A DNA stretch of 64,000 nt, from positions 32,001-96,000 of the IMG/VR virus record IMGVR_UViG_3300044691_000355; one strand, given 5' to 3'. The first letter of the stretch is position 1. Each line of letters opens with the position of its first letter. This document shows positions 6,305-57,107 of this stretch, piece by piece. The notes below the pieces were generated by a model. The model was given only the letters and a program-made list of their open reading frames with translations, was not told the origin of the DNA and did no database searches. The translations under genes were made by a program, and so were the position numbers. The stretch is from a virus.

Positions 6305-7942
6305 TTAAACGCCGCCGCTGCGCGAGGCCCAGAATTTGCGATTGGTTTCATTCAAGGATGCGGTGGTGACCGCCTTGCCGAAATCCTTGACGGTGAGCTT
6401 GACGTTTGCGCCCGCCTTGTTATTGCGCTCGCGCATCAGCTCGGCGGCTCCAGTGAAGACGCCTGCAACGTTGTCGAGCGTCACTGCATCGATCTTCTCG
6501 CCAAGCAAGAAGGGCTCGATCACCGCTTTGCCGTCGTCGGTCGCATAGGCTGTCTGCACGGCTTTGAGCATCAGGGCTGGCAGCGCATCCTTGGCCTGCG
6601 CACTGTCGCCCGTCGGCACCGCGATACCGGGGCTCAAGATTTCCGCACGCGCGAAAATGTGCTTGGACACTTGCGCCGCATCGGAGGTGCCGAGCACGCC
6701 GACATTGCGGGTACGCGCGGCTTCAAGCGCGGCTGCGGAATCGGTGGCGGCCTTCGCGGCAACGGCGTCCTCGGCTGCCTTTTTCTTCATCGCACAGTCG
6801 GCCGCTTCCTGTTCTTCCTCGGCATCCTTCACCGCCTGGCGCTGCTCATCGACCCACGCGAGCGCGTCCTGGATGCGCTTATCCATGGCTGAGTCTGTCG
6901 TCCCGCCATCGTTGCCGCCCGTGTCATCATCGGCGAGTTCTTTATCGAGTGTTTCCGCGTCGCGCGCATTGAACGCCTGCATGACACGGATGAATTTATC
7001 GGCAAATTTCGATTTCATGATTGAACGGTCTCCTAACGGTTTATAAATGCGCGATTTCGCCGCGCTGCTGGGTCTGCTCGGTTTCGACTTGCGTTGCAGC
7101 GCTCGATAGGCCGCCATGTGCTCTTTGCTCTTCGCCGTGTGTACGGCGAAGGACTTCTGATTGCCTGCCGCATGCGCGGCGGTTGCGGCTTCGAGGTGCA
7201 GGCCAAGGGCATGCCAATGGGCTTCCTCATCGCCACTCGTTTGCGCCGCTGCACTCGCCGCATGCGCGGCGGCTGAGCGCAGGCTGGTGCCACCGCCGCC
7301 ACCACTCCAGCGCCCGGTCGCATCGCGCTTCTCGGTGGGGTTGAACTGATCCCACACGGAATCCTTGATGGCGCAGCGCGAGCCTGCGCGCCCGCGCCCG
7401 TCGAGTAGCGCCACGTGATTGCCGATGATGTTGTACTGCGTCGCGCGCCCCACGTCGGTCTGCTCATATTCCGCGTCATAGCCGCAGGAAAGTTCCGGGT
7501 GCTTGCGATTCACGAAGGCAATCGCCTCACCGTCGGTGATGATCAGATCGCCCACGAGCGTGTCATCTTCGATGCCGCTGCCACGGCGCACGTTGTGCAC
7601 GGTGCCCACGGAATGTTTCTTCCAACTGCCGGGGGTCACGAATTCGTTCGGATGCTCCAAGGTGACCGGCTTGCCCTCGAAGCTCGACATCGTCTTGTCG
7701 CTGAAAACCTCATCCGCGAGGCGCGTGACGATGATCTCGCCCGCGCCATTGGCATCCAAGGGCAGCTCGGATTTGTGGTAGCGCTGCTCGCCCGTGCGCG
7801 CAATCGCCACCCCCTCGCACACCATGTACCCTTCAGGCGTAAGCCTGCGGCTCTTGCCCACCGCGCCTGGCGCATAGAAAGCGGTTTTGTCGATGACCCC
7901 GACACGGTCGAACACATTGAAGCGCTCGCGCACTTTCTTCAT
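6305..7942 (-). CDS. Prohead protease/scaffold (DUF2213 family) with tagged His/Ala-rich insertion
   Basis: TPEGY, IARTG, SFEGKPVT, ELSCGYDAEY, GNHVALL, GRAGSRCAIKD motifs; ATGA overlap with upstream gene. Confidence 0.88.
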   Translation of the reverse strand: MKKVRERFNVFDRVGVIDKTAFYAPGAVGKSRRLTPEGYMVCEGVAIARTGEQRYHKSELPLDANGAGEIIVTRLADEVFSDKTMSSFEGKPVTLEHPNEFVTPGSWKKHSVGTVHNVRRGSGIEDDTLVGDLIITDGEAIAFVNRKHPELSCGYDAEYEQTDVGRATQYNIIGNHVALLDGRGRAGSRCAIKDSVWDQFNPTEKRDATGRWSGGGGGTSLRSAAAHAASAAAQTSGDEEAHWHALGLHLEAATAAHAAGNQKSFAVHTAKSKEHMAAYRALQRKSKPSRPSSAAKSRIYKPLGDRSIMKSKFADKFIRVMQAFNARDAETLDKELADDDTGGNDGGTTDSAMDKRIQDALAWVDEQRQAVKDAEEEQEAADCAMKKKAAEDAVAAKAATDSAAALEAARTRNVGVLGTSDAAQVSKHIFARAEILSPGIAVPTGDSAQAKDALPALMLKAVQTAYATDDGKAVIEPFLLGEKIDAVTLDNVAGVFTGAAELMRERNNKAGANVKLTVKDFGKAVTTASLNETNRKFWASRSGGV

Positions 7943-8268
7943 GTGTTCGCAATCGAGGGATAGGTGCGCACTGGCAGGATGCCCGACCAGTCCAAGATTT
8001 TTTCTGGGTTGCTCGTGGCGCACGACACGCCGATGGCGTAGTCGTTGTAATCCACGCCAGCCGATACCGGCAGCAGCACTTGTGTGCTGGTGGAGCCGAG
8101 CACGGCGGTGCCCAAGATCAAGCCAGCCCCGTTGGTGTCGGTGCCCCAGATATGATTGAGAACGACCGTCGGCGCGCCGGTCAGGGTTTCCCCAACCAGC
8201 AGCCCCAATGCAAAGTTGAACACCAGTTCAACCGCTTCCAGGGGTGCTTTTTCACTGAATCGCTGCAT
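7939..8268 (-). CDS. Putative fibre adaptor protein
   Basis: FSEKAPLE..FNF start and small beta-rich fold typical of fibre adaptors; follows repeat protein. Confidence 0.5.
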   Translation of the reverse strand: MQRFSEKAPLEAVELVFNFALGLLVGETLTGAPTVVLNHIWGTDTNGAGLILGTAVLGSTSTQVLLPVSAGVDYNDYAIGVSCATSNPEKILDWSGILPVRTYPSIANT

Positions 8269-8282
8269 GTCTTAATTCCTTT

Positions 8283-9860
8283 TCAAGGTGATCGCGTCCA
8301 CGTGACTTCACGCGCGGGCGCGCTCATCGCGGCTTCGGCGGGGGGCACGTAGGAGACGGTGAAATTTCGCGCACCGAGCTGTGCCTGCGCCGCCGCCTCA
8401 TACGAAGCGGTGAAATTTCGCGCAGGGATATCGATGACGAAGGGGCCTGGCCCTTGGCTGGTCGCGGTGGTCGATAAGATCGAATGCAGCGTGTCGGGCG
8501 CTTCATGCGCGCCCAAGGCCGCAGCCACGCTCAAGAGACTCTGCGCAATCAGCGCATCCGCCCCTTCCACCACAATCGCATTGGCGGCTTCGAGCAACTG
8601 CGCGAAACTCGTAATCGTATCCGGCGCTTCCGTGCGGGTAAGACTCGCGCCCACGGTGAGCGAGAGCGCGGCGGCGAGCGCATCAGGGCCTTCCGTTTTT
8701 GTCAGCAGCGCCGTGATCGGCACCGCACCTGAAACGGCGATGAGCGTATCTGCGCCTTCGAGAATCGCAGCGTTGATCACTTCGGGCAGCGTTGCCGCAG
8801 CACTGAGTGTGTCGCCGCCTTCGGTCTTCGCGAGGCTGATCGCTTCAGGCAGCGTGGCGGCGGCGCTGATCGTATCGGGCGCTTCGGTGATCGATGCATT
8901 GATCGGCGTGCCGCTCAGACTCGCCGCTGCGCTGATCGTATCGGCGGCCTCGGTCAAGGCCGCATTCAAACTTTCAGGCAGCGTGGCCGCCGCCGCAATC
9001 GAATCAGCACCTTCGGTCAGCGCGCAAGCAATCGCTTCGGGCAGCGTTGCGGCTGCGCTCGACGTGTCGGCCCCTTCGGTCACGCTTAAAGACGCAACCG
9101 ACACGGGCGCGCCTGCCGTTGCGCTTAAGGTATCTGCGCCCTCCGTCACCCCGGCGTTGAGAACCTCGGGCAACGTGACAGCGGATGCGAGCGTGTCCGC
9201 ACCTTCCGTATCGGTGAGCGCCATCGCTTCCGGCAGCGTGGCACTCGCTGCAATCGTGTCCGCACCTTCCGTTCTGCTCAGCGCTACCGCAACCGGCAGC
9301 GTGGCACTTGATGCAACAGTGTCAGCGCCCTCGGTGTCGGTGAGCGTGACGGCAGCGGGCAGCATCACCGCCGCACTCAAGGTGTCGCCGCCCTCGACTA
9401 TCGATGCGCTTACCACCTCGGGCAGCGTCGCGGTCGAGCTGCTGGTGTCTGCGCCTTCCGTCTTTGACAGGCTCACCGCAACCGGCAAGGTCGCGGCGGC
9501 ACTGATTGTGTCGGCACCCTCCGTGACGCCTGCGCTTGCGCCCGCTGGCGCTATTGCGGCTGCGGCAATCGTGTCCGCACCTTCGACAAGAGCGGCGGCA
9601 GCACCGGCTGGCGCGCTCGCGGCCGAACTGATCGAATCAGCACCTTCGGTGATGCTCGCGCTGATCGCTTCGGGGAGCGTCGCCCCCGCGCTTAAGGCAT
9701 CTGCGCCTTCAGTCTTCGCCAAGTTAACCGCAACCGGCAGCGTCGCAGCGGCGCTTGAAGTGTCCGCGCCTTCGGTGGCGGCAAGGGCCGCATTCGTGCC
9801 GCCCGATACGGCAGGCAAGTCCCAGTCGAACCACTTTTGAATGAGAAGATCGAGGCTCAC
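8283..9860 (-). CDS. Ala/Thr-rich protein with 21 copies of a ~21-aa repeat; putative fibre spine
   Basis: Repeat TEGADTxSAAATLPxAxxxxx counted 21 times; three ARNFT/AREVT repeats at C-terminus. Confidence 0.75.
   Translation of the reverse strand: MSLDLLIQKWFDWDLPAVSGGTNAALAATEGADTSSAAATLPVAVNLAKTEGADALSAGATLPEAISASITEGADSISSAASAPAGAAAALVEGADTIAAAAIAPAGASAGVTEGADTISAAATLPVAVSLSKTEGADTSSSTATLPEVVSASIVEGGDTLSAAVMLPAAVTLTDTEGADTVASSATLPVAVALSRTEGADTIAASATLPEAMALTDTEGADTLASAVTLPEVLNAGVTEGADTLSATAGAPVSVASLSVTEGADTSSAAATLPEAIACALTEGADSIAAAATLPESLNAALTEAADTISAAASLSGTPINASITEAPDTISAAATLPEAISLAKTEGGDTLSAAATLPEVINAAILEGADTLIAVSGAVPITALLTKTEGPDALAAALSLTVGASLTRTEAPDTITSFAQLLEAANAIVVEGADALIAQSLLSVAAALGAHEAPDTLHSILSTTATSQGPGPFVIDIPARNFTASYEAAAQAQLGARNFTVSYVPPAEAAMSAPAREVTWTRSP
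8490..9780 (-). repeat. Degenerate ~63-bp coding tandem repeat
   Basis: Recurrent gtgtccgcrccttcggt / ggcagcgt units at ~63-bp spacing. Confidence 0.85.
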
Positions 9861-9861
9861 G

Positions 9862-10572
9862 CTAGAACCACTCGGCTATGTTCAGCCCCATCGCTAATCC
9901 CCCTTGACGGCCGCGACGTTTCATCGCTCCAGGGGGTGGCTTGCCAGCGACTGCGGCGGACTTGAACGCAACCGTCGCAATGGTCCAAACATCAGATGAG
10001 GCCATCGTGGCCGTGGCGTTTGCGGTGCCCAGCGCTGAGGTCGTGGTCTGACTCATCGCGTAGAAGAAACCGGCGTGCTGGTCGAGGAGGACCGTGAACC
10101 CAGGTCCAGGGGTTATTGCCTCCCCGCTGCTCGGCTGGATGACGGAGAGGATGAGATCAGTGGCATTGGCCAGAGTCCCCATCGCCATCGATATGGCCGT
10201 GGTCGCGCCGACCGTGAGGGCGCTGGCAACAGCGCCAGGGGTGCCGTCCGTGTAGCCACTGGTCGGACAACCGGCCAGCTCATATGCAATTGCCTCACAC
10301 GCGATGCTCGGGTTGATGGTGAACGTGCCGGAGGAAGTCACCACGGGGGCGACAAAAATCCACGAACCATTGTTATTTGCTGTGTCGATGCAGCTAGCAA
10401 CATTCGCGTAGCTGTTTGGGGGCGACTGGTTGTCGGAACACGACTCAGACGGCTGGACGTTGGTCGCCAACACCACAATCAAGTTGCCGACCGTGGGGGC
10501 CGATGGGAACGAGATACCCCCGCCCCCTGCGATAAAACCTGTCTGTTGAACGATGCTCGGTGCGCCGCTCAC
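9862..10572 (-). CDS. Putative virion fibre / adhesion protein
   Basis: Beta-rich, FPSAPTVGNLIVV motif; within fibre cluster. Confidence 0.5.
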   Translation of the reverse strand: MSGAPSIVQQTGFIAGGGGISFPSAPTVGNLIVVLATNVQPSESCSDNQSPPNSYANVASCIDTANNNGSWIFVAPVVTSSGTFTINPSIACEAIAYELAGCPTSGYTDGTPGAVASALTVGATTAISMAMGTLANATDLILSVIQPSSGEAITPGPGFTVLLDQHAGFFYAMSQTTTSALGTANATATMASSDVWTIATVAFKSAAVAGKPPPGAMKRRGRQGGLAMGLNIAEWF

Positions 10573-11607
10573 CTAGATGCTCGCGTTAATGCATTCCGCC
10601 GCGACAATCGTGTTCGTGCCCGAGAAGGAGGTTCCGCCGTTGACGGAAACTCCCAAAATAGAACCTGCTGGCGTCGAGTTAAATCCGCTGGATACGGTTG
10701 TTATTAGTCTAATGCCTCCGACATTGACAGGAGTCGATGCGAGACCCGTTACCGCTAGAAAGCTAAGTAGCTTCAAGTTTCCAACCACTACGGCTGAGGT
10801 ACCCGAACCCACCGTGCGGAAATGTAATTCCAATTCAAATTTACCGGTGTCCGCAACAGCGGTGCCTGCGCCGAATGTAAAGGTCAGAATAGCTGTATCG
10901 GCAGTGGTTCCTGCTGTGCCATAACGCACAGTGACAACGAACGCCGCTGTGCCCGCAGCGGTCTTCACCATATCGAATATGAGTCGATACTTAGTCCCCA
11001 CCACAGGGCCGCCCGCACCCAACGCAATCGCCGATCCCGCCAGATATGTGTCGGCGGCAAAGCCCGCGCTGACCGTGGATACAGAACGATTCGACAGGGT
11101 CGCGAGCGCATACTTCACGCCCAATGCGGCCGATGCAGCGGCCATGAGCGAGGTGCCATCTGCGCCAACCGGAATGCGGTCAGGGCCGGTGTCAAAGCCG
11201 ATCAAGTCGCCCTTCGTCGTCAAGGGCAATCCCAGCGTTTCAACCAGGCCCGCAGCGCTGTACTTAGTCCACACGCCCAGCTCATCGAAGATTACTGACT
11301 CACCGGGCAGCAGCGTACCGTTCCACAGGCTTTCCGCCGTTGTGCCGTCGAAATGCTCTACCAGAACCGTGGTTGACACCGTCGCATGCGTGTTGTTGAT
11401 ATCGAGCAGCTTGACGTTGCGCTGCACGCTTGAGCCAGGAGAGCCGACAACCGTCGTCGTGGTGGCAGTCGAGATACTCGCGGTGTTCGTGCGCCCCGGC
11501 GTAATGACCCCGGAGGCATTGTCCATATGCGATTCGTGAACATCGAGCGCCGCCGCCGATCCGGTCGTGACACGGACGATGTCGGAGACCGAGGTAAGCA
11601 GCAGCAT
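10573..11607 (-). CDS. Putative virion fibre protein
   Basis: MLLLTSVSDIVRVTT start, LTTKGDL and RIPVGADG fibre-type motifs. Confidence 0.55.
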   Translation of the reverse strand: MLLLTSVSDIVRVTTGSAAALDVHESHMDNASGVITPGRTNTASISTATTTTVVGSPGSSVQRNVKLLDINNTHATVSTTVLVEHFDGTTAESLWNGTLLPGESVIFDELGVWTKYSAAGLVETLGLPLTTKGDLIGFDTGPDRIPVGADGTSLMAAASAALGVKYALATLSNRSVSTVSAGFAADTYLAGSAIALGAGGPVVGTKYRLIFDMVKTAAGTAAFVVTVRYGTAGTTADTAILTFTFGAGTAVADTGKFELELHFRTVGSGTSAVVVGNLKLLSFLAVTGLASTPVNVGGIRLITTVSSGFNSTPAGSILGVSVNGGTSFSGTNTIVAAECINASI

Positions 11608-11816: not shown

Positions 11817-12221
11817 TTACGCGTTCGCGGAGGTGAGGGTGAAGGTGTTGACCGTCCAGGCCTGCGCGCTCGCAGCGACCGGATTGTCCATGGTCATATC
11901 CCCACCGCCGCCCGTGGCGGTCACGCTGCCTTGAACGTGGCACGTCGTTCCGGTGCTGTCATAAATACGGAAGTATCCGACCGTTCCCGCAGCGCTAAAT
12001 GTGCCGGTCCATGTGCCCGCTTTCGCCTTCGCGCCAGCAGAGGCATTCGCCAGCCAGTCAGAGGGCAACGCCTGCGAGGCGAGGTTGGTGCCGCTCGCAG
12101 CGGTCGCGCACGTGGCTGGCTCCGCGCCCGTGTAGAACTTGAGCAACGGCGCAGTGCTGATCGTGGTCTCGATTTGATCGAGCTTGGCGTTGAGCACTGT
12201 TTGGCTGTATTGCAGGGCCAT
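11817..12221 (-). CDS. Small beta-sandwich structural protein; putative repeating fibre subunit
   Basis: LKFYTGAEP, GTVGYFRI, QGSVTATGGGGDM motifs; RBS GGAGA. Confidence 0.65.
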   Translation of the reverse strand: MALQYSQTVLNAKLDQIETTISTAPLLKFYTGAEPATCATAASGTNLASQALPSDWLANASAGAKAKAGTWTGTFSAAGTVGYFRIYDSTGTTCHVQGSVTATGGGGDMTMDNPVAASAQAWTVNTFTLTSANA

Positions 12222-12245: not shown

Positions 12246-13079
12246 TTAAACGATGATTTCTGCCCAGCAGCGGCATTCCCAAATGCACCCAGGATGAAAG
12301 CGCATCAGTCGGCCGCTCTCTTCGATCTCGGGCGGGTTGGCCCACTCGCATACGCGGCCGTCCATCGCGCGATGATTCGGGCGAGTCACATGATCTTTGG
12401 TCGCGCGCCAGCGGTAGGTCGGAAGCCCGGCGATGCTCGCGCGTGCTTGGGTCAAATTCGATGCGGTGCGCGACACCTCGGTGCGTGCGATCAGCCGCGC
12501 GTGCGCTGCGCTCACCTCGCCTGAGCGCTCGATCTCGCGCACGATCCTTCCTAATCGCTCGCCCTCGATCAGGCCGGTCAAGGTGAGGCGTTGCACACGC
12601 TGCGCAGCTTCGATGGGCAAGGAGGCAATCAATTCGGTTTGCTCGGCCATGAGTTTGGCCATCACTGCGCCGACTTGCGTGTCACGGATTTCTTGCGCGA
12701 CGCCAGCGGACATGCTCTTGGCCAGCGCGCGCCAGGTTTCGATATCGCGCGCGTTGACTTCCTCGATCATCCTGGCCGATGCTTTTTTGGCCCATGGCCG
12801 AAGCACCTGGCTGTAGGCGTGCAGCACCGAGACCAGCTCTTCGTTACCCGCCCTTTGGGCGGCGGGGAACGCATTGATCAGATGCCCGATGTGTTCACCC
12901 ACCTTGCCGAGCGAACGCTCGAATTCTTCCGTCGCGCGGCCGATCCGTGGCTTGCCTCGCGCTCGCTTCGCGCGCGCATCCATGGCGCGGTGACGCTGCG
13001 CCCGCGAGCCAAGGGAGTACGTTAGGTGGCCGCACGTGAGCAGCGGCACGAATTTCGGTTTCGGTTTCGCCGCGATCAC
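12246..13079 (-). CDS. Head morphogenesis protein (MuF / SPP1 gp7 family), short form
   Basis: ARLIARTEVSR, YRWRAT, RPNH, HPGCIWECRCWAE motifs; GTG start overlapping upstream TGA. Confidence 0.88.
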   Translation of the reverse strand: MIAAKPKPKFVPLLTCGHLTYSLGSRAQRHRAMDARAKRARGKPRIGRATEEFERSLGKVGEHIGHLINAFPAAQRAGNEELVSVLHAYSQVLRPWAKKASARMIEEVNARDIETWRALAKSMSAGVAQEIRDTQVGAVMAKLMAEQTELIASLPIEAAQRVQRLTLTGLIEGERLGRIVREIERSGEVSAAHARLIARTEVSRTASNLTQARASIAGLPTYRWRATKDHVTRPNHRAMDGRVCEWANPPEIEESGRLMRFHPGCIWECRCWAEIIV

Positions 13080-13258
13080 GGCGTTGTCGGCGGCGTCACC
13101 ACGGCATTGATCAGTGCATCGGCGTACCCGACGCACACTCGCGCAAGGTCTGCGGGATCATTGCGTGCGCCGCGCACGATGGCAGCGGTCAGGAAGACCC
13201 CCGCGAGCGCGAGGCGCAAGACTTGATCGCGATCTTCAAAATCGATGGGCTCACTCAT
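13076..13258 (-). CDS. Small hypothetical protein
   Basis: Start/stop overlaps with both neighbours. Confidence 0.5.
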   Translation of the reverse strand: MSEPIDFEDRDQVLRLALAGVFLTAAIVRGARNDPADLARVCVGYADALINAVVTPPTTP

Positions 13259-13389
13259 TCCGTCTCATCCTCGTCTTCGTCGATGGGCTCATCATCAAAC
13301 GGATACTCCATGCCCTCGGGCAGATGCGCTTCGACCGGCTGATAGTCGTTCAAGCGCTTGATGAAATCCTCGGAGACTTTCTCGGTCAT
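13255..13389 (-). CDS. 44-aa acidic protein following the ART gene
   Basis: Not in ORF track; MTEKVSEDFIKRLNDYQPVEAHLPEGMEYPFDDEPIDEDEDETE; abuts ART stop and overlaps next start. Confidence 0.6.
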   Translation of the reverse strand: MTEKVSEDFIKRLNDYQPVEAHLPEGMEYPFDDEPIDEDEDETE

Positions 13390-15764
13390 AACAGCGCTCC
13401 TTGAGCGGGGGCCTTCACGCGCGGCTTGCGTAGCTTCGGCGGTTGCACCGATGAACTGACCGCCGTGGCATGCACCACGATTCGCGCGAGTTCGCCCTCG
13501 CCTTTCGTGACCTTGGTGATTTTGAAGACCGTGCCCCGTGGCAGCAGCGCTTCGGCCTCGCCGTCGGCGAATGGCACGTCAGTGCCGTTATGCTGATTGG
13601 CCAATTTGCCGAAGGTGGGGATGGATAGGAACTTGAATCCCTTCGGGATGGTGATATGCATCAGCCCGTCTTTACTGAACACGTGCGCCACGCTCTTGGC
13701 GAACGAGGTGGAGCAATACGCGTGATCCATCATCGTGTCACCGACGCCGATGGATTCAACAAGGATGCGGGGAAGGCCGCGCGCGACCAGCAGCTTGCGC
13801 GGCGAGCCCTTCACGGCCTGCATGGCTGTATCGATGCCACGGATGTACGTCTGCATGTAGCTCGACACTGCGTCGAGATTGCCTTGGCTACGACGCAAAT
13901 CATCGTTGATCGAAGAACCTCCGGTGTACTTGACGACCCCGTCGATGATCTCGGGCGTAGGATCTGGCGGCGGCATCTTGAATGCGCGCTCGGCGAGGCG
14001 TGAGGCCTCTGTGCCGCTGCTGCCGCGCATTTTTATCAACATTTCAGGCAACGTCTTCGGATCAACGGGCTCAGGCGGCGCGTTGTTCGCTGCGGATGAC
14101 GCCGCGTAAGCCTGCGCTTCGGCCGTCGAGGCCTTCGTGTATTCCGCTTGCCACGTCGCTTTCTCAGCCCCAGTCATGCTGGTGGAGGCGTACACGGTCG
14201 ATGCCATGTTGGTGAAGGCATCGAGCTTTTCGACGGCGGCGAAGTGTGCGGCCTTGAGTTTGTCCAGCTCCGTTTGCGGCTTCGCCGACATCTTTTGCGC
14301 GAGCTTCTGCTTCTCCAGCGCCGCATTCAGCGCAGCCTCTGCTGCGTTTTCGTTGAACTGCGCTTCACTCACCAGCGCTTTCAGATGCGCGAGCTGCTCG
14401 GGGATGGCAGTCCCTGACGTGAACGCTTGAACGAGCCGCATGACAGCCGCTTCGTTCTCGGCGCGCGCCTCCAGATGCGCCGCCTGCAACTCCTGCAACG
14501 GCGTGAGAGGCGCGGGCGCATTCATCTGATTGACGTAGGTTTGCATCACTGAGCCGAAATGCGCGAGCGTCGCGGGCCCATCGGCCTGCGCGGCGTTCAT
14601 GATCTGAAGGAATTTCTTCGGTGAAGATTTGCCGTACAGGTACAGCTCGTGCACGCCGTATTGCAGATTGCCGACCCACAGCTTGGTCGCCTCGGTCACC
14701 TCGAAATTTTCCTGCACGTGCTTGAGCGAGCCCGCTTCGGCGGAATACGTGAAATCGAGTTTCTGCGCCGCCTGGGTGTCGAGTTGCTCCAACTCCAACA
14801 CCTTATCGGTCTCGGCATCTGCCTTGTACGCGGCTTGAAGCGCCTCTTGAATACGCTTCTTCTCCAGCACCGCTGCCTGATGCAGCGCCGCTTTCTCTTT
14901 CGCATACGCCATCGCGGTGCCTGTCACCGTCGGCGGGAAGAGCTGATTGAAACTGCCTTTGGTCCACTTGCCGGTCGCGTCGCGCTTCTGATCGGGGTCG
15001 AAATGATTCTTCTCATCATCGCGAGTCACACCGATCAATGCGGCGCGGCGCGCAAAGAACGTGCGCGCCAGCGTCGCGGAATTCTTCAAGCCGGAGGCGA
15101 CGAATGCGCCCTCAATGGCATTGCTATCAAGGCCGCGCACGCGCTCAAGCGCCGTATCAAAGGCCTTCGGGTCCAAGCGGCGCAACTGATTGAACACGGC
15201 ACCGGAGGGTAAATGCTCGCGCATCAGGCTCGACTTCTCGCTCACATCGGCGTCGTAGTCCTTATGCTGCCCCTGCGCGCGAAATTCAAACGCGCCGCCC
15301 AGATCGAGCTGCACCAAGTGACCTTGCGCGTCTTGCGCGATGTTCGAGTAATCAATTCCCAGCACGTCCCAGTTTTTGGTGAGCACGGCCGCGTAATACA
15401 TGGTCGCCAAGTCCACGCGCCGCTCAGCGTCGAGGAGCTGCACCGCGCCGGGCCACTTCACGGGCTTCGCCTCAATCCACGGGGAGACCAAGGCCTCCTT
15501 GCCGTGCACGGATTCGACATGCGGCATCGTGGTGCGCACACCCAACTGTCCGACCAGCGCGCTGGCGAGCGCCTCGCTGCGGCCCTGATCGGGGTTTGCG
15601 TAGAATTTGATGTAGTGCTTCTGACCCGCACTCGTGAACACGCCGCCGGGGTTTGAACCTAACTGCGCGCCGCTCTTCGTCCAGCGGCCTTGCGTGTCGC
15701 GCTTCTCAGCAGGATCAAAGCCGTCGTATGCCCTCGCGACGCGCGCATCCCACTGAGCGCTCAC
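13386..15764 (-). CDS. Multidomain protein: tag + HipA/PI3K-like kinase + tag + coiled coil + VIP2/Alt-like ADP-ribosyltransferase
   Basis: Kinase: GSNPGG, YIK, SEALAS, NWDVLG..N, LDLGG; ART: YT..S..IN..LR, VARGL, CSTSF, EAEALLPRG (R-S-ExE). Confidence 0.8.
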   Translation of the reverse strand: MSAQWDARVARAYDGFDPAEKRDTQGRWTKSGAQLGSNPGGVFTSAGQKHYIKFYANPDQGRSEALASALVGQLGVRTTMPHVESVHGKEALVSPWIEAKPVKWPGAVQLLDAERRVDLATMYYAAVLTKNWDVLGIDYSNIAQDAQGHLVQLDLGGAFEFRAQGQHKDYDADVSEKSSLMREHLPSGAVFNQLRRLDPKAFDTALERVRGLDSNAIEGAFVASGLKNSATLARTFFARRAALIGVTRDDEKNHFDPDQKRDATGKWTKGSFNQLFPPTVTGTAMAYAKEKAALHQAAVLEKKRIQEALQAAYKADAETDKVLELEQLDTQAAQKLDFTYSAEAGSLKHVQENFEVTEATKLWVGNLQYGVHELYLYGKSSPKKFLQIMNAAQADGPATLAHFGSVMQTYVNQMNAPAPLTPLQELQAAHLEARAENEAAVMRLVQAFTSGTAIPEQLAHLKALVSEAQFNENAAEAALNAALEKQKLAQKMSAKPQTELDKLKAAHFAAVEKLDAFTNMASTVYASTSMTGAEKATWQAEYTKASTAEAQAYAASSAANNAPPEPVDPKTLPEMLIKMRGSSGTEASRLAERAFKMPPPDPTPEIIDGVVKYTGGSSINDDLRRSQGNLDAVSSYMQTYIRGIDTAMQAVKGSPRKLLVARGLPRILVESIGVGDTMMDHAYCSTSFAKSVAHVFSKDGLMHITIPKGFKFLSIPTFGKLANQHNGTDVPFADGEAEALLPRGTVFKITKVTKGEGELARIVVHATAVSSSVQPPKLRKPRVKAPAQGALL

Positions 15765-18628
15765 GGCCCAAACATTTCCGCATACACGGAATCGAAATCC
15801 TCATCGCCGTCATCATCGTCATCGCCGGGGTCAACGCTTTGCCAATCTGGCGTCTCGCCCACATAGCCATGCGTCTCTAAGAAATCGGTCATCGCTTGCT
15901 CACTCGTCACGGCTGCATCGGCGGCAAACAGGCGGCCGATCCAGTCCTTGACCTTGGATTTTTTCACTGGGGCTGTTGCACTCCAGGCTTTCCACACCAT
16001 CGGATCGATGTAGGACTTCAAGGCCTGCGCGGGCTTGTTGCCGAGCTTATCGCTGACCTTTTCAGCGATGGCGGCCACAGAGGCCTTGTGCTCTTTCGCA
16101 TCCATCGGCACCGGCATTTTCTTGACCTGCGCGCGCGCCATGTCGGTGGCGACCCATGTGCGCATGTCCTTCAAATCGAATTCTGAAGCCCCAATGCCGT
16201 GGAAGTAATCGCGCACGTGGGTTTCGCTCACCTGGAAAATCTGCTTATTCTCGCCCGTCGCACGCTGGCGTAGGAAGGTCGCGACCTTCGCATCCTTGAC
16301 GATGTGATGCTGCGTAACGCCGCTCTTGCCGGGGAAATCGAACGTGGTCGAATCGCCTGAGACCTTGACGTGCTGGCCTTCCAACTGCGTCGCCCCATGG
16401 GCTTTGACATCCGCGCCCGTGTCCTTTTCGGAGCCGGGACGAAAGCCAGTCTGCGAGACCAAGTACACGACTGCGGCGGCATCCTGTACCGCGCGCGGCA
16501 GCTTCGGATCGTTCATGTCGGCGGCGGCCTTGGCAACCACGCGATCCCGTACCTTATTGAAGGCGACGAGGCGCGAGAATTTCTCCACGTCCTGCTCGCC
16601 GCGATGGCCCGGCAGCTCGCGTGACTGTGAGCGGCCCTTGACATCGCGCCCCGTCACTTGCTTGCCTTCGGTCGGATCGGGATTCAAGCGAATGTCGGTC
16701 CACGCGGGCGGTATTTTCAGCGCCTTCAATCGCGCGTGCTCTTCGGGCGTGCCGCCATGCCACTTCTCATTTGCGCCGTACACGGTGTGCGCTGGCACCA
16801 TCTCGCCCTTGACGAGCTGCGCGGGGATGAGCGTGCCGCCGGAGCGCGTGAACACCTTGCTCGATGTGCTCCAGCGATTCGCAATTGGATTCTTGGACAC
16901 GTAGGACTTTTCAGGCACCGCTGCCTTGCCCTGATTGCCTATCGTCCATTTGCCTTCGGGGTCGCGCTTCTCCTGCGGATTGAACCCGTGGTGCGGCTGA
17001 CCGCCTGACGTGACGTGCTTCAACTTATCGAAGTTCGGGATATTCTCGAAGCGGTCAAAGAAATCCGCGTCGCGGCCTTTCTTGGTCTTCGGCGGCGGCT
17101 TCTTCGCGACCTTGGAGGCCTTGCTCTTCGCGCCCGGCGCTTTGGCAGCGCCTGACTCTGAGCCACGGCCGGGACGCGCGGGCGTCTTGCCCTTTGCGCC
17201 GGGTTTCGCAGCGCCCGGCGGTGCACCGGGGGCGGGCTTCGGCAGCACCAGGCCCAGCGCTTCGGGCGTGGGATCGGGCAGCGACTCGGCGTTTTTGATG
17301 TCCTCATCCGCGATATTCGAGAACGCGCCGGTAATGAGCGACATCGCCTTGAGTTCCTTCAGGCCCGTCGCTTTGTTGATGAGCTGCGCGGAGAAGGCCT
17401 CGGTAACGGCCGCCACCGTGGTGTTGGTGACCTGGGATTTCTCCGTGTCGGACAACTGCCACAGGGATTTGAACTCTAAGGTGAATTCTTTCGGCGGCTC
17501 GGTGCCGAATTTGCTGATGTACGCCAGGCGATACACCGTCTCGATGCCATCACCCAGCCACGTGACTTGCTGCTGCTTCACTGAATCGTGATAGCCGCGA
17601 ATGTCGGCATCCCCGGTCGAGAACCCGGCAGGCGATTGACCGAAGAGGCGCACCAGCGGTATTTCAACGGCCCCCGCCAACTGCTCGCCGAACTGCGACA
17701 GGATCACATCGAGACCGGCAAATGCGTACTGGTGCGTCTCAAAAGTGTCGCGCGTATCCAAGAGGGTGAGGCCCTCATTGGTTTGCATCGCGCGAATCAT
17801 GTTGATGTTGGCGAGCAAGCCTTTCATCGCGGCCGATGTGCCGCCGATGATTTCGCGCAGGCCCTCCACCGACAGCGTGCGCAAATGCGCCTTGTAGACC
17901 ATCTGCGAGATGCCAGCGGTGGCCGAGTCATACGCGATCAGCCGATCCCACATCCGCTCGATCACTGACTGGCCCCACAGGTTCTCACCGATGCGCTGCC
18001 AGTACGGCAGCTCCACGCCCTCGATGCGGATCACGCGCGAGTAGTGGATTTTCATGCGCGGCATGCCGCCCGTGTCGGTGATCGTGTCGTAGAAGCGCGG
18101 TTTGCCGAAGTACGGCCCCATGTCATCGACCAAGTCGGTCAAGGAGGGCTGCAACACCCACCGATCCAGCGGCATCAAACCTTTGAATTGCCCCTGGCGA
18201 ATGCGATCCAATTTCAATGGCGTCGCGGGGTTTTGCCCATCGATCATCATGAAGGCGACAGCGCCGCCATAGAGGCGCGCCCACTTAATCGTGTCGCGCA
18301 GTTGCTTCCACAATTGCAGGCGCGCGATTTCCTTATTGAAGTCCGCGATCTTTGACGGCTTATCGCTCGTGGTGATTTCCATGCCCTCGCGGGTCATGTC
18401 CTGCGCGTAGACATCGACCACGCGACCGGCGATCCAAGAGCCCCGGTACACCATCTCCATCTGCATGCGGTTGCGCGAGATGGGATTAAACCCATACGCG
18501 CCGCCATCGCCCTGATTGCCCGTGCCGCGCCCCACGTGCGCAAGAAAATTCTGAAAAGTATCGTGAGTTTGGGCGGCCTCCGCGTCTGCGAACTTCTTGA
18601 CCAGTCGCGGACTGCGCCGATTGCTCAT
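15761..18628 (-). CDS. Portal protein (DUF1073 family) fused to tag and DNA topoisomerase IB
   Basis: Portal: YRGSW, WARLYGGA, IHYSRVIR, IPLVRLFGQSPAGF; TopIB: KIPPAW, GRDVKGR, GFRPGS, FPGKSG, KDMRT, LGN, SYIDP. Confidence 0.88.
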   Translation of the reverse strand: MSNRRSPRLVKKFADAEAAQTHDTFQNFLAHVGRGTGNQGDGGAYGFNPISRNRMQMEMVYRGSWIAGRVVDVYAQDMTREGMEITTSDKPSKIADFNKEIARLQLWKQLRDTIKWARLYGGAVAFMMIDGQNPATPLKLDRIRQGQFKGLMPLDRWVLQPSLTDLVDDMGPYFGKPRFYDTITDTGGMPRMKIHYSRVIRIEGVELPYWQRIGENLWGQSVIERMWDRLIAYDSATAGISQMVYKAHLRTLSVEGLREIIGGTSAAMKGLLANINMIRAMQTNEGLTLLDTRDTFETHQYAFAGLDVILSQFGEQLAGAVEIPLVRLFGQSPAGFSTGDADIRGYHDSVKQQQVTWLGDGIETVYRLAYISKFGTEPPKEFTLEFKSLWQLSDTEKSQVTNTTVAAVTEAFSAQLINKATGLKELKAMSLITGAFSNIADEDIKNAESLPDPTPEALGLVLPKPAPGAPPGAAKPGAKGKTPARPGRGSESGAAKAPGAKSKASKVAKKPPPKTKKGRDADFFDRFENIPNFDKLKHVTSGGQPHHGFNPQEKRDPEGKWTIGNQGKAAVPEKSYVSKNPIANRWSTSSKVFTRSGGTLIPAQLVKGEMVPAHTVYGANEKWHGGTPEEHARLKALKIPPAWTDIRLNPDPTEGKQVTGRDVKGRSQSRELPGHRGEQDVEKFSRLVAFNKVRDRVVAKAAADMNDPKLPRAVQDAAAVVYLVSQTGFRPGSEKDTGADVKAHGATQLEGQHVKVSGDSTTFDFPGKSGVTQHHIVKDAKVATFLRQRATGENKQIFQVSETHVRDYFHGIGASEFDLKDMRTWVATDMARAQVKKMPVPMDAKEHKASVAAIAEKVSDKLGNKPAQALKSYIDPMVWKAWSATAPVKKSKVKDWIGRLFAADAAVTSEQAMTDFLETHGYVGETPDWQSVDPGDDDDDGDEDFDSVYAEMFGP

Positions 18629-18908: not shown

Positions 18909-19004
18909 CTACTTGATGATGTCGCCAGCCAGGCGCTTGCAGCGCATACAGATCGCTTTCAAGGGGCTGCGCTTATGGCCGAAGAAAAAGCAAAGAATGT
19001 TCAT
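18909..19004 (-). CDS. 31-aa Cys/His peptide
   Basis: MNILCFFFGHKRSPLKAICMRCKRLAGDIIK; ATGA overlap with terminase stop. Confidence 0.5.
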   Translation of the reverse strand: MNILCFFFGHKRSPLKAICMRCKRLAGDIIK

Positions 19005-20347
19005 TCGCCCAACTTCTCCCACTGCGCACCGACGCCGCGCCTTTGGATGTAGCCATCGAGCCCGTAGCGAACCGCGTCCCATCCATGGTTGTGTGCATCG
19101 ACGATGATGGGCAACACATCGCCCGTGATCCGGTCCACCTTGTAAGCGTACAGACGCGCCTCTTCCTGCATGTGCTTGCAGCGCTCGTGAATATGGATGC
19201 GGACGAAGCCTTTTAAATGCGCAACGCCGTCCTCTAACGACCCCGGCCATTTATCGGCGGCCGAAATGTTGAAGGACTTGCGCGCCATGTAGGAAATCGT
19301 CTCAGGGCGCGCGCAGTCGGCCCTGATCGGCCAGGCCCTTGAGCCGGGCACGGAGTCAAACAATTGCGGGGTCTCATCGATCTCCACGCGGTAGCCGAAG
19401 GCCTCGTGACTGATCCACAACTCCTGACTGTGATCAGGATTCTCAGTGACCCAGAAACGAATGAGCGCGGTAGGATCATTTGCAAAACCCCAGTCTGCGC
19501 CGTAAAAAATGCGGGTGTCTTCATGGGGATTGCCAAAGGATTCTACGAGGACCCGACGGCGGAACACCGCCGCATTGGAATTCTTTTGAAGCTTGCCTTC
19601 CCAGACGTGATCGTAATCGGCCTGTAACTGGGAGCGCTCATCATCATCGGTAGCCTCGGCGATGCGCCGCCAGTCATTCTCGCGCTCGGCCTTCAGCTCA
19701 TCGGGGAACCATGGATTGTCGTTCCAGTTCACCTCGACGCTGCGCATGTCCGGGCGCGTCGCGAGCACGAAGCGCTCGTACGTCGGGTCCGTCTCATCGC
19801 GCGGGTTGAACACCACCCAGATTTCGGATGAGCCCAACTTGGTGCGAATGGTGGGAATCAAATATTTCCAGGACGCATCGGAGACGCGCTCCGCTTCCTC
19901 GACCAGGCAGATATCAATCGCTTCGAGCGACTTGATCTTGAGCGGGTCCGTCTTGATCCCCGCGAAAATAAACTCGGTGCCGTTGACCCCAAAGATGGCC
20001 TGCGCCTGAATCTCGTAGAAGCGCGTGAGGCCCATCTGTTCGATGCGATCCGTGATCAGTTTGTAGATCGAATCGCGAATCGAGGTCTGGTACTCGCGCG
20101 CGCAGAGGATGCGCAGCCGGTGCTGCGTGCCCAACACGGCGCATAGGCCTGCAAAGCTCCAGCTCTTCCCCGATCCGCGCCCCCCGTAGGCCACCTTGTA
20201 GCGGCTCGGAATAAACACGGGCATGCCGCCGGGGCCCGGCCTGAAAAAGAGGTCCCGCAGTTTTGGCGGGAGAAAATCGTTAGTGGGTGAGTTGCGGCTC
20301 GGGGTCCTCATCCGTTGCTTCGGGTTTCTCAGCGGCTCCGGGTTCAT
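19001..20347 (-). CDS. terL: Terminase large subunit (PBSX family)
   Basis: YGGRGSGKS Walker A, CAREYQTSI, VEEAE Walker B, GADWGFANDP, NHGWDAVRY. Confidence 0.95.
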   Translation of the reverse strand: MNPEPLRNPKQRMRTPSRNSPTNDFLPPKLRDLFFRPGPGGMPVFIPSRYKVAYGGRGSGKSWSFAGLCAVLGTQHRLRILCAREYQTSIRDSIYKLITDRIEQMGLTRFYEIQAQAIFGVNGTEFIFAGIKTDPLKIKSLEAIDICLVEEAERVSDASWKYLIPTIRTKLGSSEIWVVFNPRDETDPTYERFVLATRPDMRSVEVNWNDNPWFPDELKAERENDWRRIAEATDDDERSQLQADYDHVWEGKLQKNSNAAVFRRRVLVESFGNPHEDTRIFYGADWGFANDPTALIRFWVTENPDHSQELWISHEAFGYRVEIDETPQLFDSVPGSRAWPIRADCARPETISYMARKSFNISAADKWPGSLEDGVAHLKGFVRIHIHERCKHMQEEARLYAYKVDRITGDVLPIIVDAHNHGWDAVRYGLDGYIQRRGVGAQWEKLGE

Positions 20348-20735
20348 AGATCAATGCCTTTTTCGGAAGGCCTGGACCGCCATCGGCGAAGGAGATACCA
20401 AGCTTCGGGTGATCGACCGGCCTGCCCTGCGCATCGAGCAATTGGTTTTGCACCACGTTGACCTCGCGCCAACCGGCTTGGGATTTCATCCAGAAAATCG
20501 CAGCGCCCAGGTTCATATCCACGGTGGCCATAGTGAAGAGCGTCTTGGCCACGGTCGCATTGCCGCGCGCCTTGCCCTGGTCTAATTCCAATTTGTAATA
20601 CTTGAGCAGCGTCGGGGTCGAGATGTTCATCAGCAGCGCGATGTCGTGATGAGGGGTGCCGACCGTGGCATACGCGCGCGCTTCGAGTGAATCCTTCTCC
20701 GTCTTGATGTGCTTCTTACCCCGCGTGCCCGCCAT
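20280..20735 (-). CDS. terS: Terminase small subunit
   Basis: HTH (IALLMNISTPTLLKYY), AAIFWMK..GW motif; directly upstream of terL. Confidence 0.8.
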   Translation of the reverse strand: MAGTRGKKHIKTEKDSLEARAYATVGTPHHDIALLMNISTPTLLKYYKLELDQGKARGNATVAKTLFTMATVDMNLGAAIFWMKSQAGWREVNVVQNQLLDAQGRPVDHPKLGISFADGGPGLPKKALIYEPGAAEKPEATDEDPEPQLTH

Positions 20736-36457: not shown

Positions 36458-36700
36458 TTGGGGTATAATGTGAGGCTAGCGACACTCGCGGAATATCGGC
36501 GACTGGTGTACGCGGAAGGCAGCGGCCCCGCCTTGAACACACTGCGCAAGCGCATCAAAGATATTCCCGGCGGGCGCATGGAGTTGGGTCGCTACTATGT
36601 GGACCTCGATGAGAACGAGCGTCAGCGGGGGATCAAGAACCCGACGGCAAAACGAATTGCCGAACTGCGCGCGAGTCCTCTGTTGAAGAACCTGCTGTGA
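36458..36700 (+). CDS. Putative excisionase 1
   Basis: Small basic protein, TLAEY..PALNTLRKRI..GRYYVD; directly upstream of integrase. Confidence 0.65.
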   Translation: MGYNVRLATLAEYRRLVYAEGSGPALNTLRKRIKDIPGGRMELGRYYVDLDENERQRGIKNPTAKRIAELRASPLLKNLL

Positions 36701-36708
36701 GGATCGCG

Positions 36709-37872
36709 ATGGCACGACCGAGAAAACCGGGGACAGATTTCCCGCCGAACATGTACCGGGATGGCAGCGGCTTTCGCGTCGTCAATCCGCTCACGGAGAA
36801 GAAAATTCGCGTGCCTGACGAGGCCACGGCGCGCGCCATCGCTGAGCAGTTCAATGAGCTGCGCTGCATGGAGCATAAGCAAACCGTAGAGCGCCGCTAC
36901 GGTAAAAAAACCGCCGCCGATGTCGTTGACATGTTTCTCGCCGATGAGGTGCCCGGCAAACCGTGGAAGAATGGCACGCGCGCCAATCATGTGTACAAGC
37001 TCAAGCGCTTTAAGAGGCAATTTGGCGAGCATGAATTCGCACGGGTCGATTGTGTGATGCTGCGCGACTGGCTCAAGAGCTTCGTCCGCTCGGCAGGCCT
37101 GTGGGGCAAATACCGCGACACCTTAAGCCTGATGTGGGCGTTTGCCATCAGCGTCAATCTCGTCGGGGAGAACGAGCCGCTCAAGGTTCTGGCAAAGTAC
37201 ACCGGCCCGAAGGTGGCCGCGAACCGCACCCAGCGCCGCCCGCTCGATGTGGCTGCCTACAAAGCGATCTATGAGCACGCCCCGGCGTACCTGCGCCTCG
37301 CCATGGACTTATCGCTTTTGACCCTCCAGTCGCGCAATGAAATCATCAACATGGAGCACACCGATTTCGATGATGGCTACCTGTTCGTGATCCGGGAGAA
37401 GACCGCCTACAAATCGAACATGGCTTTCATCAAGATCGCCCTGACCGAGGAGTTGAAGTACCTGCGCCAGCGCGGCCGGATGCTCGACAATGCCGCAAGC
37501 CCGTACCTCGTCCATCGCAAGCCGTTCAAGAAGTACAAGCGCGCCCCCAGGGAGGGTGAGACCGCCATGCCGCATTGGACGTGGATCACCCCGAACTTCC
37601 TCTCCAAGGCGTTCAAAAAGGCGCGCAACAAGACTGGGCTCTGGGAGGGGGTGCCACAGGTGGAGCAGCCGGGCTTTCATATGATCCGCAAATTGGGTGC
37701 CCAGCTTGCCGAGGACCGTGGCGTGCCCACCGGGGTCATTCAGGCCCTCATGACGCACTCCAGCCCCGAGACCACGATGATCTACCTCGACCGGGGAGAG
37801 GCGGCGCTGACGGCCTCTGACTTCGTTCCCACGGCCACCCTGTTCACCCTCAAGGAGGCGCTGGGCCGATGA
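36709..37872 (+). CDS. int: Tyrosine integrase 1
   Basis: QSRNEI (R), EKT (K), FHMIR (HxxR), MTHS (H), MIYLD (Y); lambda-like N-terminus. Confidence 0.9.
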   Translation: MARPRKPGTDFPPNMYRDGSGFRVVNPLTEKKIRVPDEATARAIAEQFNELRCMEHKQTVERRYGKKTAADVVDMFLADEVPGKPWKNGTRANHVYKLKRFKRQFGEHEFARVDCVMLRDWLKSFVRSAGLWGKYRDTLSLMWAFAISVNLVGENEPLKVLAKYTGPKVAANRTQRRPLDVAAYKAIYEHAPAYLRLAMDLSLLTLQSRNEIINMEHTDFDDGYLFVIREKTAYKSNMAFIKIALTEELKYLRQRGRMLDNAASPYLVHRKPFKKYKRAPREGETAMPHWTWITPNFLSKAFKKARNKTGLWEGVPQVEQPGFHMIRKLGAQLAEDRGVPTGVIQALMTHSSPETTMIYLDRGEAALTASDFVPTATLFTLKEALGR

Positions 37873-40001: not shown

Positions 40002-40346
40002 ATGGGCGATCTTTTGGAATGGGAAGCCGCGCTCAGGCCGATGGCCGAAACGTCGTACTCCCAGCGGAGAGGTGAAGCCGTGAAGCTACCGGAAGTGGAT
40101 GCCGTCAATATCAATGAGCTATCGACGGAGGCGCGCACCGCGATTACCGATGCGCTCTTTGATGACGGCTGGGACGTTGGCAAGTCGTGGATTGACTTCG
40201 ATATGTGCTGCGGCATCTGGTTCCGATTGAAGTACGCGAAGGATGACCCTGACCTATTCCCCAAGGGCAAGTGGGCTACCTTGCAGCGTTTCGAGCAATT
40301 GATTGAGCAGGCAGTACGCTCACAATCTGATGCCGGGGTGAAGTGA
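40002..40346 (+). CDS. Hypothetical protein
   Basis: In operon; start uncertain. Confidence 0.45.
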   Translation: MGDLLEWEAALRPMAETSYSQRRGEAVKLPEVDAVNINELSTEARTAITDALFDDGWDVGKSWIDFDMCCGIWFRLKYAKDDPDLFPKGKWATLQRFEQLIEQAVRSQSDAGVK

Positions 40347-43314: not shown

Positions 43315-43676
43315 TGAGCGAAAATCACACGATGAGTTTGGCGCAAGCCGCTGAATTCCTGCGGATTCACCCTGAGACTCTTGCGGCTCGCGCCAGGGCT
43401 AACGAGATCCCTGGTTGCAAGGTTGGCAGGTCCTGGGTTTTCATGCCTGAATTATTGAGGGAGTACCTGAGATGTCGATCTACCGCCGCAAAGGAACGCC
43501 CAACTGGTGGATCAGCATCAGCGTCGCTGGCCGAAAGACTCGCCGGACGACTGGCACAGCGGACCGCGAAAAAGCAAAGGAGTTCGAGACAAGCGAGCGC
43601 GAACGGCTCTGGCGAGTCCACAAGCTCGGTGATACAGGTTACGTTCGGTGGGCCGAAGCGGCAGCAAGATGGTTAG
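43315..43676 (+). CDS. Excisionase-like HTH protein 2, overlapping integrase 2
   Basis: MSLAQAAEFLRIHPETL..RARANEIPGCKVGRSWVF. Confidence 0.8.
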
Positions 43677-57097: not shown

Positions 57098-57107
57098 TAG
57101 ATATTCC

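Follow-up and report, generated by a model that had tools for sequence, protein, structure and literature searches.

A phage portal protein fused to a type IB topoisomerase domain in a soil metagenome

Enzymes joined to proteins that are built into the phage head form a described class: in its main text, the survey of polyvalent proteins by Iyer, Burroughs, Anand, de Souza and Aravind (2017) sets out effectors fused to portal or MuF proteins, with PBECR, 2H and InPase domains among the fused parts and BcepF1 gp124 as an example (PMC5512222). Here we describe a protein of this kind with a different cargo, in which a portal protein, a linker, a 13-residue tag, a type IB topoisomerase (TopIB) and an acidic tail follow one another in a single open reading frame (ORF) of 955 amino acids (aa). 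It is encoded in a stretch of 64,000 nucleotides, hereafter the window, that corresponds to bases 32001-96000 of the IMG/VR virus record IMGVR_UViG_3300044691_000355 (132,772 bases, from a soil metagenome); coordinates of its parts and neighbors are collected in Table 1. As in polyvalent proteins, a head-built anchor carries an enzyme, both lie in one polypeptide encoded within a block of late head genes, domains are shuffled between orthologs, and relatives of this TopIB adjoin InPase, ART-PolyVal, 2H and NUDIX domains; what sets this protein apart is its type IB topoisomerase cargo. The word 'topoisomerase' occurs once in the main text of PMC5512222, in the reference list (the supplement, outside that scope, might list TopIB), and a text search for motif terms found no 13-aa module-border tag. 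Titles and abstracts of the literature searched on phage, portal or MuF proteins together with TopIB describe no such fusion either. Portal-fused effectors are therefore a known class, and TopIB as their cargo was not found described. A preliminary description of this DNA had stated that no portal-TopIB fusion was known, which is true of the literature searched and does not extend to sequence collections: such fusions are common in metagenomes, where we found 24 others, and the effector class itself is published (PMC5512222).

The topoisomerase half most resembles, in both sequence and fold, the TopIB of Deinococcus radiodurans (2f4q, 3m4a), with which it shares a two-domain clamp and an R-K-R-N-Y active site. 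The bacterial enzyme is a free cellular protein of 346 aa, whereas the phage enzyme forms the C-terminal half of a structural protein of the virion, preceded by the tag and followed by the acidic module. A more distant parallel is the TopIB of poxviruses (vaccinia and variola; 2h7f, 3igc), which has the same fold and is carried in the virion; the vaccinia enzyme is described as encapsidated and as acting mainly in early transcription (PMC12188299, in part). It differs in having only 17% sequence identity to the phage domain and in being a free core protein of a eukaryotic virus whose transcription takes place within the core; in the phage, the enzyme would be loaded through its covalent fusion to the portal, and its presence in the virion is inferred. 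The stand-alone TopIBs of phages (PaBG and Motura, as covered in part in PMC7824862, and Bacteroides phage BS162P1) are likewise phage-encoded and have the fold of the tyrosine-recombinase superfamily; they differ in being only 25-29% identical and in being separate genes outside the head module, as was seen in detail for BS162P1. A virion-borne topoisomerase of a bacteriophage is not described in the literature searched. On the portal side, the closest described proteins are those of Pam3/E217-type myophages (8hds, 8fvh; PF06381, formerly DUF1073), which share the portal half as well as neighbors of the PF22758, PF09950 and DUF3383 families; cultured relatives of this type differ in that their matches end near aa 456 and include no TopIB part.

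The portal-topoisomerase reading frame

The N-terminal 460 aa are those of an ordinary member of the PF06381 family. In addition to the Pfam domain (Table 1), this half is matched by NCBIfam TIGR01555 (245.5 bits against a cut-off of 196.25), by PHROG 146, 'portal protein' (E = 6e-133, covering aa 15-494), and, in a sequence search of the PDB, by the Pam3 portal 8hds (E = 2e-35 over aa 55-456) and by other solved dodecameric portals, namely E217 gp19, 9l01, 9jlf and 9b41. Family profile and homology to dodecameric portals thus agree, and the gene is placed as a portal gene would be, within the head and packaging module. The whole 132.8-kb record contains one PF06381 match, which is this protein, and none to PF04860, these being the two portal families searched for, so that the portal-TopIB protein is the only portal detected in the record. 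In a portal chain, barrel and crown lie toward the C-terminus. In the closest solved homolog, Pam3 gp3, the portal is a dodecamer with barrel and crown inside the head, according to the portions of the structural account that deal with it (PMC9942802); because of this, the earlier estimate of about 12 topoisomerases per head is a fair one, and we infer a dodecameric assembly at one capsid vertex.

By profile, active-site residues and predicted fold, the C-terminal half is a complete TopIB of the bacterial/poxvirus type, with an N-terminal clamp domain, a catalytic domain and an R-K-R-N-Y site. A profile search of the whole record recovers the same PF01028 match at 78 bits, and in the region matched by the clamp profile an AlphaFold2 model places three strands (model residues 104-131, corresponding to aa 644-671). 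The best solved sequence match is D. radiodurans TopIB (2f4q; phmmer E = 1e-21, aa 631-880 against chain 39-296). Counted along that alignment, R730 (in GFRPGS, codon 16439-16441), K768 (PGKSG, 16325-16327), R823 (KDMRTW, 16160-16162), N864 (LGNKP, 16037-16039) and Y873 fall on 2f4q positions 137, 174, 239, 280 and 289, which we take to be the catalytic pentad of that enzyme. The asparagine of the bacterial pentad is a histidine in poxviruses and eukaryotes. When the TopIB parts of 52 long TopIB-bearing proteins are aligned with MAFFT, none of the 52 departs from R, K, R, N and Y at these five positions. Another alignment, built from 57 representative proteins, shows no variation at R, R, N and Y and at least 90% conservation at K.

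The AlphaFold2 model of aa 541-955, made from an alignment of 38 rows, has a mean pLDDT (predicted local distance difference test) of 77.7 and a pTM (predicted template modeling score) of 0.73; 180 residues reach a pLDDT of at least 90, the core lying mostly above that value, and aa 890-904 are disordered. In a Foldseek search of the PDB the model has 3m4a (E = 6e-15) and 2f4q (E = 5e-14) on top, followed by the variola TopIB-DNA complex 2h7f (TMt 0.67, root-mean-square deviation 3.4 Å over 281 columns) and then human Top1; TopIB structures fill 21 of the 22 top ranks, and tyrosine recombinases start only at E = 2e-4. The domain is apparently active. The preliminary description had reported a retained pentad and had made its case hang on the presence of a TopIB fold; all five motifs that it quoted were found, align to 2f4q and are invariant among the 52 proteins, and the model matches solved TopIBs.

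Comparison of the sequences indicates that the fusion is real and no artifact, because four relatives are co-linear with it and because codon usage continues in frame across the linker. The relatives (P0004, P0005, P0006 and P0007, with 74, 72, 70 and 64% identity) come from four other metagenome contigs, and each has portal, linker, junction, tag, TopIB and acidic tail in the same order. G+C content at third codon positions (GC3) in the ORF frame is 0.65-0.93 over the full length and 0.75-0.82 over the linker; the other two frames of the linker contain 2 and 3 stops, and a scan of the linker sequence found no homopolymer of 6 or more. The linker was also checked on assembled contigs (Logan), not raw reads. 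A 59.8-kb contig of the probable source run, at a depth of 20, spans the ORF with 0 differences, which, given its origin, is not independent evidence. Fragments from a second study are near-identical, with a single T>G at 17582, but have gaps at 16186-16764, at 17001-17477 and elsewhere. The composition first read from the letters, with portal, linker, tag and TopIB in one 955-aa ORF, is borne out by the ORF itself and by Pfam, NCBIfam and PHROG, its coordinates and motifs are all correct, and PF06381 (the DUF1073-type portal) and PF01028 both exceed their curated cut-offs. The suspicion raised there, that the linker might hide a missed stop, is answered in part: the frame is intact in the ORF and in the contigs, on a check that covers contigs only and in which the second-study pieces do not reach 17001-17477.

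The two halves are joined by a linker rich in Pro, Lys, Ala and Gly that ends in a conserved FFxxF junction, of which F523, F524 and F527 are invariant in the five co-linear homologs; among these five the linker length differs by whole-codon indels. The modeled part of the linker (from aa 541) and the region of the tag are disordered. Four copies of the tag core, RDxxG[KR]W, lie in the window, where 0.21 would be expected, all of them on the minus strand and in head genes. A slightly looser pattern has 110 matches in 70 of 197 TopIB-bearing proteins (50 shuffles gave a mean of 5.3 and a maximum of 10), and in 49 of the 197 it lies at most 110 aa upstream of the TopIB fold; the 197 come from two overlapping one-query searches, and these counts describe this TopIB family only. 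Several TopIB-bearing proteins of 300-400 aa have the tag at their N-terminus, and one protein of 2542 aa has six copies at the spacing of domains. We read the tag as a putative module-border signal for loading or processing.

Behind the catalytic domain stands an acidic module of 56 aa, predicted to form two helices (Table 1), that is kept behind TopIB in P0004-P0007, P0099 and P0072 and is matched more weakly in a further three proteins. When a complex of the TopIB core (aa 625-889) with the tail (aa 900-955) was predicted, the median score over three runs was 0.68, and none of three controls scored above 0.00. Scores this high occur for 58 of 80 solved complexes and for 2 of 110 mismatched pairs, counts that serve as a rough calibration here since we supplied alignments of our own. 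At least 65% of contacts are common to the runs, the partner pLDDT is at least 57, and the confident contacts set tail helices 909-921 and 941-954 against aa 687-698, 825-833, 847-855 and 865-880, patches that in the predicted complex encircle the helix with N864 and Y873. The predicted docking site of the tail is thus the part of the catalytic domain that surrounds the Tyr873 helix. In an ESM Atlas search with the tail (aa 886-955), the best features scored 0.82, 0.77 and 0.76 and TM did not exceed 0.42, all below the reliability marks of the tool. The possibility that the tail is the original C-terminus of the portal was considered and rejected; an unfused portal (L003) ends in the linker, and the tail follows TopIB on proteins that are not portals.

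Carriers of the topoisomerase domain

A HMMER search of 1.84 billion representative proteins with the TopIB part gave 5066 matches at E <= 1e-3. Among the best 150 of these, 87 are longer than 500 aa and 47 longer than 800 aa. Of the 100 that are longer than 450 aa, 57 were scanned with Pfam and contain Phage_portal_3 (9), MuF (9), ART-PolyVal (5), InPase (4) and Acb1 (2), with single cases of zeta toxin, NUDIX and 2H. A TopIB-part search limited to proteins of 525-1672 aa, read through precomputed Pfam labels, returned 52 proteins including the query, and portals of four families account for 25 of them: PF06381 in 16, PF04860 in 5, PF06074 in 3 and PF05136 in 1. The hunt for further portal-TopIB fusions that the preliminary description had called for thus yields 24 besides the query from this one search. 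MuF proteins carry the domain in 5 of the 52 and DUF2213 proteins in 2 (P0023 and P0032), and the remainder have ADP-ribosyltransferase (ART), InPase, NUDIX and further domains. In each of 8 carriers that were re-scanned, the IMG/VR proteins L004 and L005 included, the anchor is N-terminal and TopIB is C-terminal.

In a quick maximum-likelihood tree of the TopIB domains of the 52, carriers of different types are interleaved. The label PF06381 changes 8 times on the tree, at least 3 of the changes being forced by well-supported branches, and PF04860 and PF06074 change 5 and 3 times, all of them forced. Portals without TopIB were found close by: searching IMG/VR contigs with an alignment of the five co-linear proteins (A2) gave two, L002 and L003, at 63-64% identity. 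L003 is a plain portal of 493 aa that ends in the linker. The other (L002:8001-10289) is a portal of 762 aa with 64% identity in which linker and junction (here FSMFD, with a degenerate tag-like stretch) are retained and which continues into an extension of about 250 aa that is Lys/Glu-rich, helical, unrelated to TopIB and without a Pfam match. With P0013 as query, the viral contigs gave three TopIB loci (L004, L005 and L006), of which L004 and L005 encode portal-InPase-TopIB; with P0007 as query they gave nothing. One effector is therefore found on several anchors, and one anchor with several effectors, as expected of modular shuffling. The mixed carriers and the near portals that lack TopIB lead us to regard the TopIB as a mobile passenger and not as a part of the portal. 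As judged from its occurrence in four portal families, on MuF and DUF2213 proteins and in tagged stand-alone proteins, the tag-TopIB unit is mobile.

Cultured phages offer the two halves separately. Their portals match the portal half with up to 54% identity (Burkholderia phage Magia, aa 14-456), all such matches stopping near aa 456, and none of the 1504 cultured-phage records that match the whole protein covers at least 80% of it. For the TopIB half there are just 11 matching records of cultured phages, with identities of 25-29%; all are annotated as topoisomerase genes standing alone, with no portal fusion among them, and the cultured-phage collection of 50,697 records shows no portal-TopIB fusion. 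A scan of isolate-genome contigs with A2 matched 71 pattern stretches, none coding for a relative. A structure search of BFVD gave TopIBs of eukaryotic giant viruses and of jumbo phages, and an entry of 957 aa (G8DGZ0), with no evident portal fusion.

In its NCBI record the portal-TopIB protein P0029, from a metagenome-assembled genome, goes by the name 'anti-CBASS Acb1 family protein'. Of the 57 long TopIB-bearing proteins, 2 are matched by the Acb1 profile PF23474. Either the two domains coexist in some carriers or the name has spread via the portal part.

Role of the fused topoisomerase

We think it somewhat probable, from the arrangement and company of the domain, that the TopIB is head cargo which a cut near the junction or tag would release, and which would then leave together with the DNA and relax the entering genome. 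Fused inward of the portal, up to 12 copies would be built into the interior of the procapsid; a head protease would probably cut the TopIB free near the tag or junction; and the freed enzyme would probably exit alongside the DNA and remove supercoils from the incoming genome, which would let early transcription and replication start, in parallel to the encapsidated TopIB of poxviruses. The acidic tail, packed at the Tyr873 helix, may keep the enzyme off the packed DNA until release. Since a TopIB needs neither ATP nor Mg2+, it would be suited to work from a virion. We favor this role as head cargo because the module is also found on MuF and DUF2213 proteins and alone, and because it travels with host-directed enzymes.

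It is tempting to extend this to a general capsid-loading system in many uncultured tailed phages, in which the tag (consensus F-[DN]-P-x-E-K-R-D-x-x-G-[KR]-W) would mark passengers on any procapsid protein and a head protease would trim them; TopIB would be among the commonest passengers, silenced by its tail at the Tyr helix while in the DNA-filled head and then co-ejected to relax the genome for early transcription, and it would be a phage counterpart of the encapsidated poxvirus enzyme that brings its own latch. In this full form the idea is tentative, and we hold it to be on the unlikely side.

Several points weigh against the TopIB being released head cargo. A portal is a fixed component of the vertex, so that exit would need a cut in the linker, and the candidate cut site is put forward from motif conservation. 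The enzyme that might make such a cut is no firmer, the 'protease' of the DUF2213 protein being a PHROG label only, with 0 matches in a PDB sequence search and no Pfam protease annotation. About half of the carriers are portals, which leaves room for a job near the portal, and MuF, too, is thought to sit at the portal. Because both modeled pieces belong to one chain, the docking of the tail on the core may reflect no more than a domain whose structure extends into the tail. The tree that shows the carriers interleaved comes from a quick maximum-likelihood search only, and the stretch 17001-17477, with the linker, lacks independent sequence cover.

The chief alternative is that the enzyme stays where it is made, as a portal-tethered swivel that nicks and reseals passing or adjacent DNA and so frees the twist of headful packaging or of ejection. 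Of the two mechanisms offered in the preliminary description, this torsion relief at the portal fits the comparative data less well than a domain that is cleaved off and injected, because TopIB is also found on MuF, DUF2213 and stand-alone proteins and because the nearest portals have no TopIB or have other cargo. The same distribution can be read in its favor as far as the 25 portals among the 52 carriers are concerned, since they belong to four unrelated families; the tether between portal core and TopIB fold (about aa 455-625) is long and flexible, the chemistry needs no ATP or Mg2+, and the 132.8-kb record has no profile match to a type IA or type II topoisomerase. Against it, the module is shared with DUF2213 protease/scaffold proteins, MuF proteins and tagged stand-alone proteins, it travels with the host-directed effectors ART, Acb1, InPase, NUDIX and zeta toxin, and portals at 63-64% identity manage without it. 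The near portals without TopIB, together with the other anchors, suggest that TopIB is not part of the portal mechanism in this lineage, and we consider a tethered role unlikely.

Somewhat less likely still is an injected effector directed at the host, with the TopIB relaxing or nicking host DNA for shut-off, or undoing the work of a defense nickase, and the tail acting as an inhibitor of the immunity type. The company kept by the domain would suit this well, as the co-cargo consists of conflict enzymes (ART-PolyVal, Acb1, InPase, 2H, NUDIX, GNAT, zeta toxin) and the next gene encodes a tagged ADP-ribosyltransferase; the tail, moreover, is predicted to bind beside the helix of the active-site Tyr, scoring 0.68 against 0.00 for controls. 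About a dozen molecules, however, would seem few against a whole chromosome with active gyrase, and we know of no TopIB toxin. The literature searched on phage-, portal- or MuF-linked TopIB yields nothing of the kind, and conservation of the pentad cannot separate a toxin from a relaxase, because the same residues cleave and reseal.

An artifact, with an assembly or sequencing error joining two genes, or a dead domain, with TopIB a decayed DNA-binding remnant, is very improbable and largely refuted already: what speaks for the former is that contigs and not raw reads were checked and that second-study contigs do not cover 17001-17477, against which stand four co-linear fusions on other contigs whose linkers differ in length yet keep the frame, 24 further portal-TopIB proteins, and continuous GC3 periodicity through a linker free of homopolymers, while a dead domain is at odds with a pentad invariant in 52 of 52 proteins and a confidently predicted TopIB fold.

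If the TopIB is loaded as head cargo and delivered, DNA topology would join the controls that a phage exerts from the first second of infection, among which modification of RNA polymerase by Alt and anti-restriction by DarB or Ocr are known. It would also be a natural example of the loading of a folded 45-kDa enzyme into a capsid by fusion to the portal. The pentad is strictly conserved across hundreds of carriers, which opens the idea to direct test.

Head module and surrounding record

The head module is of myophage type and lies entirely on the minus strand, with the large terminase subunit gene directly upstream of portal-TopIB (Table 1).

Table 1. Parts of the portal-TopIB protein and neighboring head genes, with positions in the 64,000-nucleotide window.
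Feature	Position	Strand	Evidence or detail
TerS	20280-20735	-	head-module annotation
TerL, directly upstream of portal-TopIB	19001-20347	-	Pfam Terminase_3 and Terminase_3C; PHROG terminase large subunit
Whole portal-TopIB ORF, 955 aa	15761-18628	-	stop TGA 15761-15763; internal stops 0
Portal domain, aa 56-409, PF06381 Phage_portal_3	17402-18463	-	Pfam E = 3e-103; 345.6 bits, cut-off 33.8
Pro/Lys/Ala/Gly linker, aa 455-545	16994-17266	-	15 P, 15 K, 14 A, 12 G in 91 residues
13-aa tag, aa 549-561	16946-16984	-	FNPQEKRDPEGKW
TopIB N-terminal clamp domain, aa 628-662	16643-16747	-	PF21338 Top1B_N_bact; 33 bits, cut-off 27
TopIB catalytic domain, aa 676-868	16025-16603	-	PF01028 Topoisom_I; E = 1e-20; 74.2 bits, cut-off 23.7
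Codon of nucleophile Tyr873 (KSYIDP)	16010-16012	-	Y column in 52/52 aligned proteins
C-terminal acidic module, aa 900-955, 56 aa	15764-15931	-	17 D/E, 0 K/R; helices aa 909-919 and 945-953
792-aa protein with two tags and C-terminal ADP-ribosyltransferase	13386-15764	-	GTG start overlaps portal stop (GTGA)
MuF-type minor head protein	12246-13136	-	Pfam Phage_Mu_F, E = 5e-17; PHROG 324, head morphogenesis
Virion structural protein, downstream of MuF	11817-12221	-	head module
DUF2213 protease/scaffold-type protein	6305-8023	-	DUF2213 aa 59-222; tag directly after, aa 226-238

In the 792-aa protein that follows portal-TopIB, the tag cores lie at aa 22 and aa 261 and the ADP-ribosyltransferase is matched by PF03496 (aa 610-767, E = 2e-11), with no Pfam match in the N-terminal third. 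In the relative P0007 such a tag and ART are fused behind the portal-TopIB, giving one ORF of 1275 aa. The DUF2213 protein continues after its tag with a Gly run and then a long Ala/Glu-rich helical part, a layout that would fit self-processing of a protease-scaffold fusion. Further neighbors encode a cement protein (PF22758), the major capsid protein (PF09950) and a sheath protein (DUF3383). Between the gene for the virion structural protein and that for the DUF2213 protein, three head-module ORFs of 525, 236 and 344 aa (8283-11607, minus strand) have no Pfam match, and only the 525-aa ORF has a PHROG match, to a family without assigned function; they may be further cargo.

Bases 1-127 of the record recur exactly at 40208-40334 of the window (72208-72334 of the record) and nowhere else, with no similarity beyond the repeat. 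Genes for tyrosine integrases flank the 127-nt repeat at 36697-37872 and 43472-44506, and no tRNA was found near it. The repeat may be an att-like core or a node of the assembly graph. If so, the record could consist of the portal-TopIB phage, integrated as an element of about 72.2 kb, followed by a second phage-like region, as opposed to one genome of 133 kb. Large ORFs at 55526-59885 (minus strand), one set with CHB_HEX_C/Fn3_assoc and another with Big_1 and glycosyl hydrolase family 71 domains, are probably tail-fiber depolymerases of that second phage-like region.

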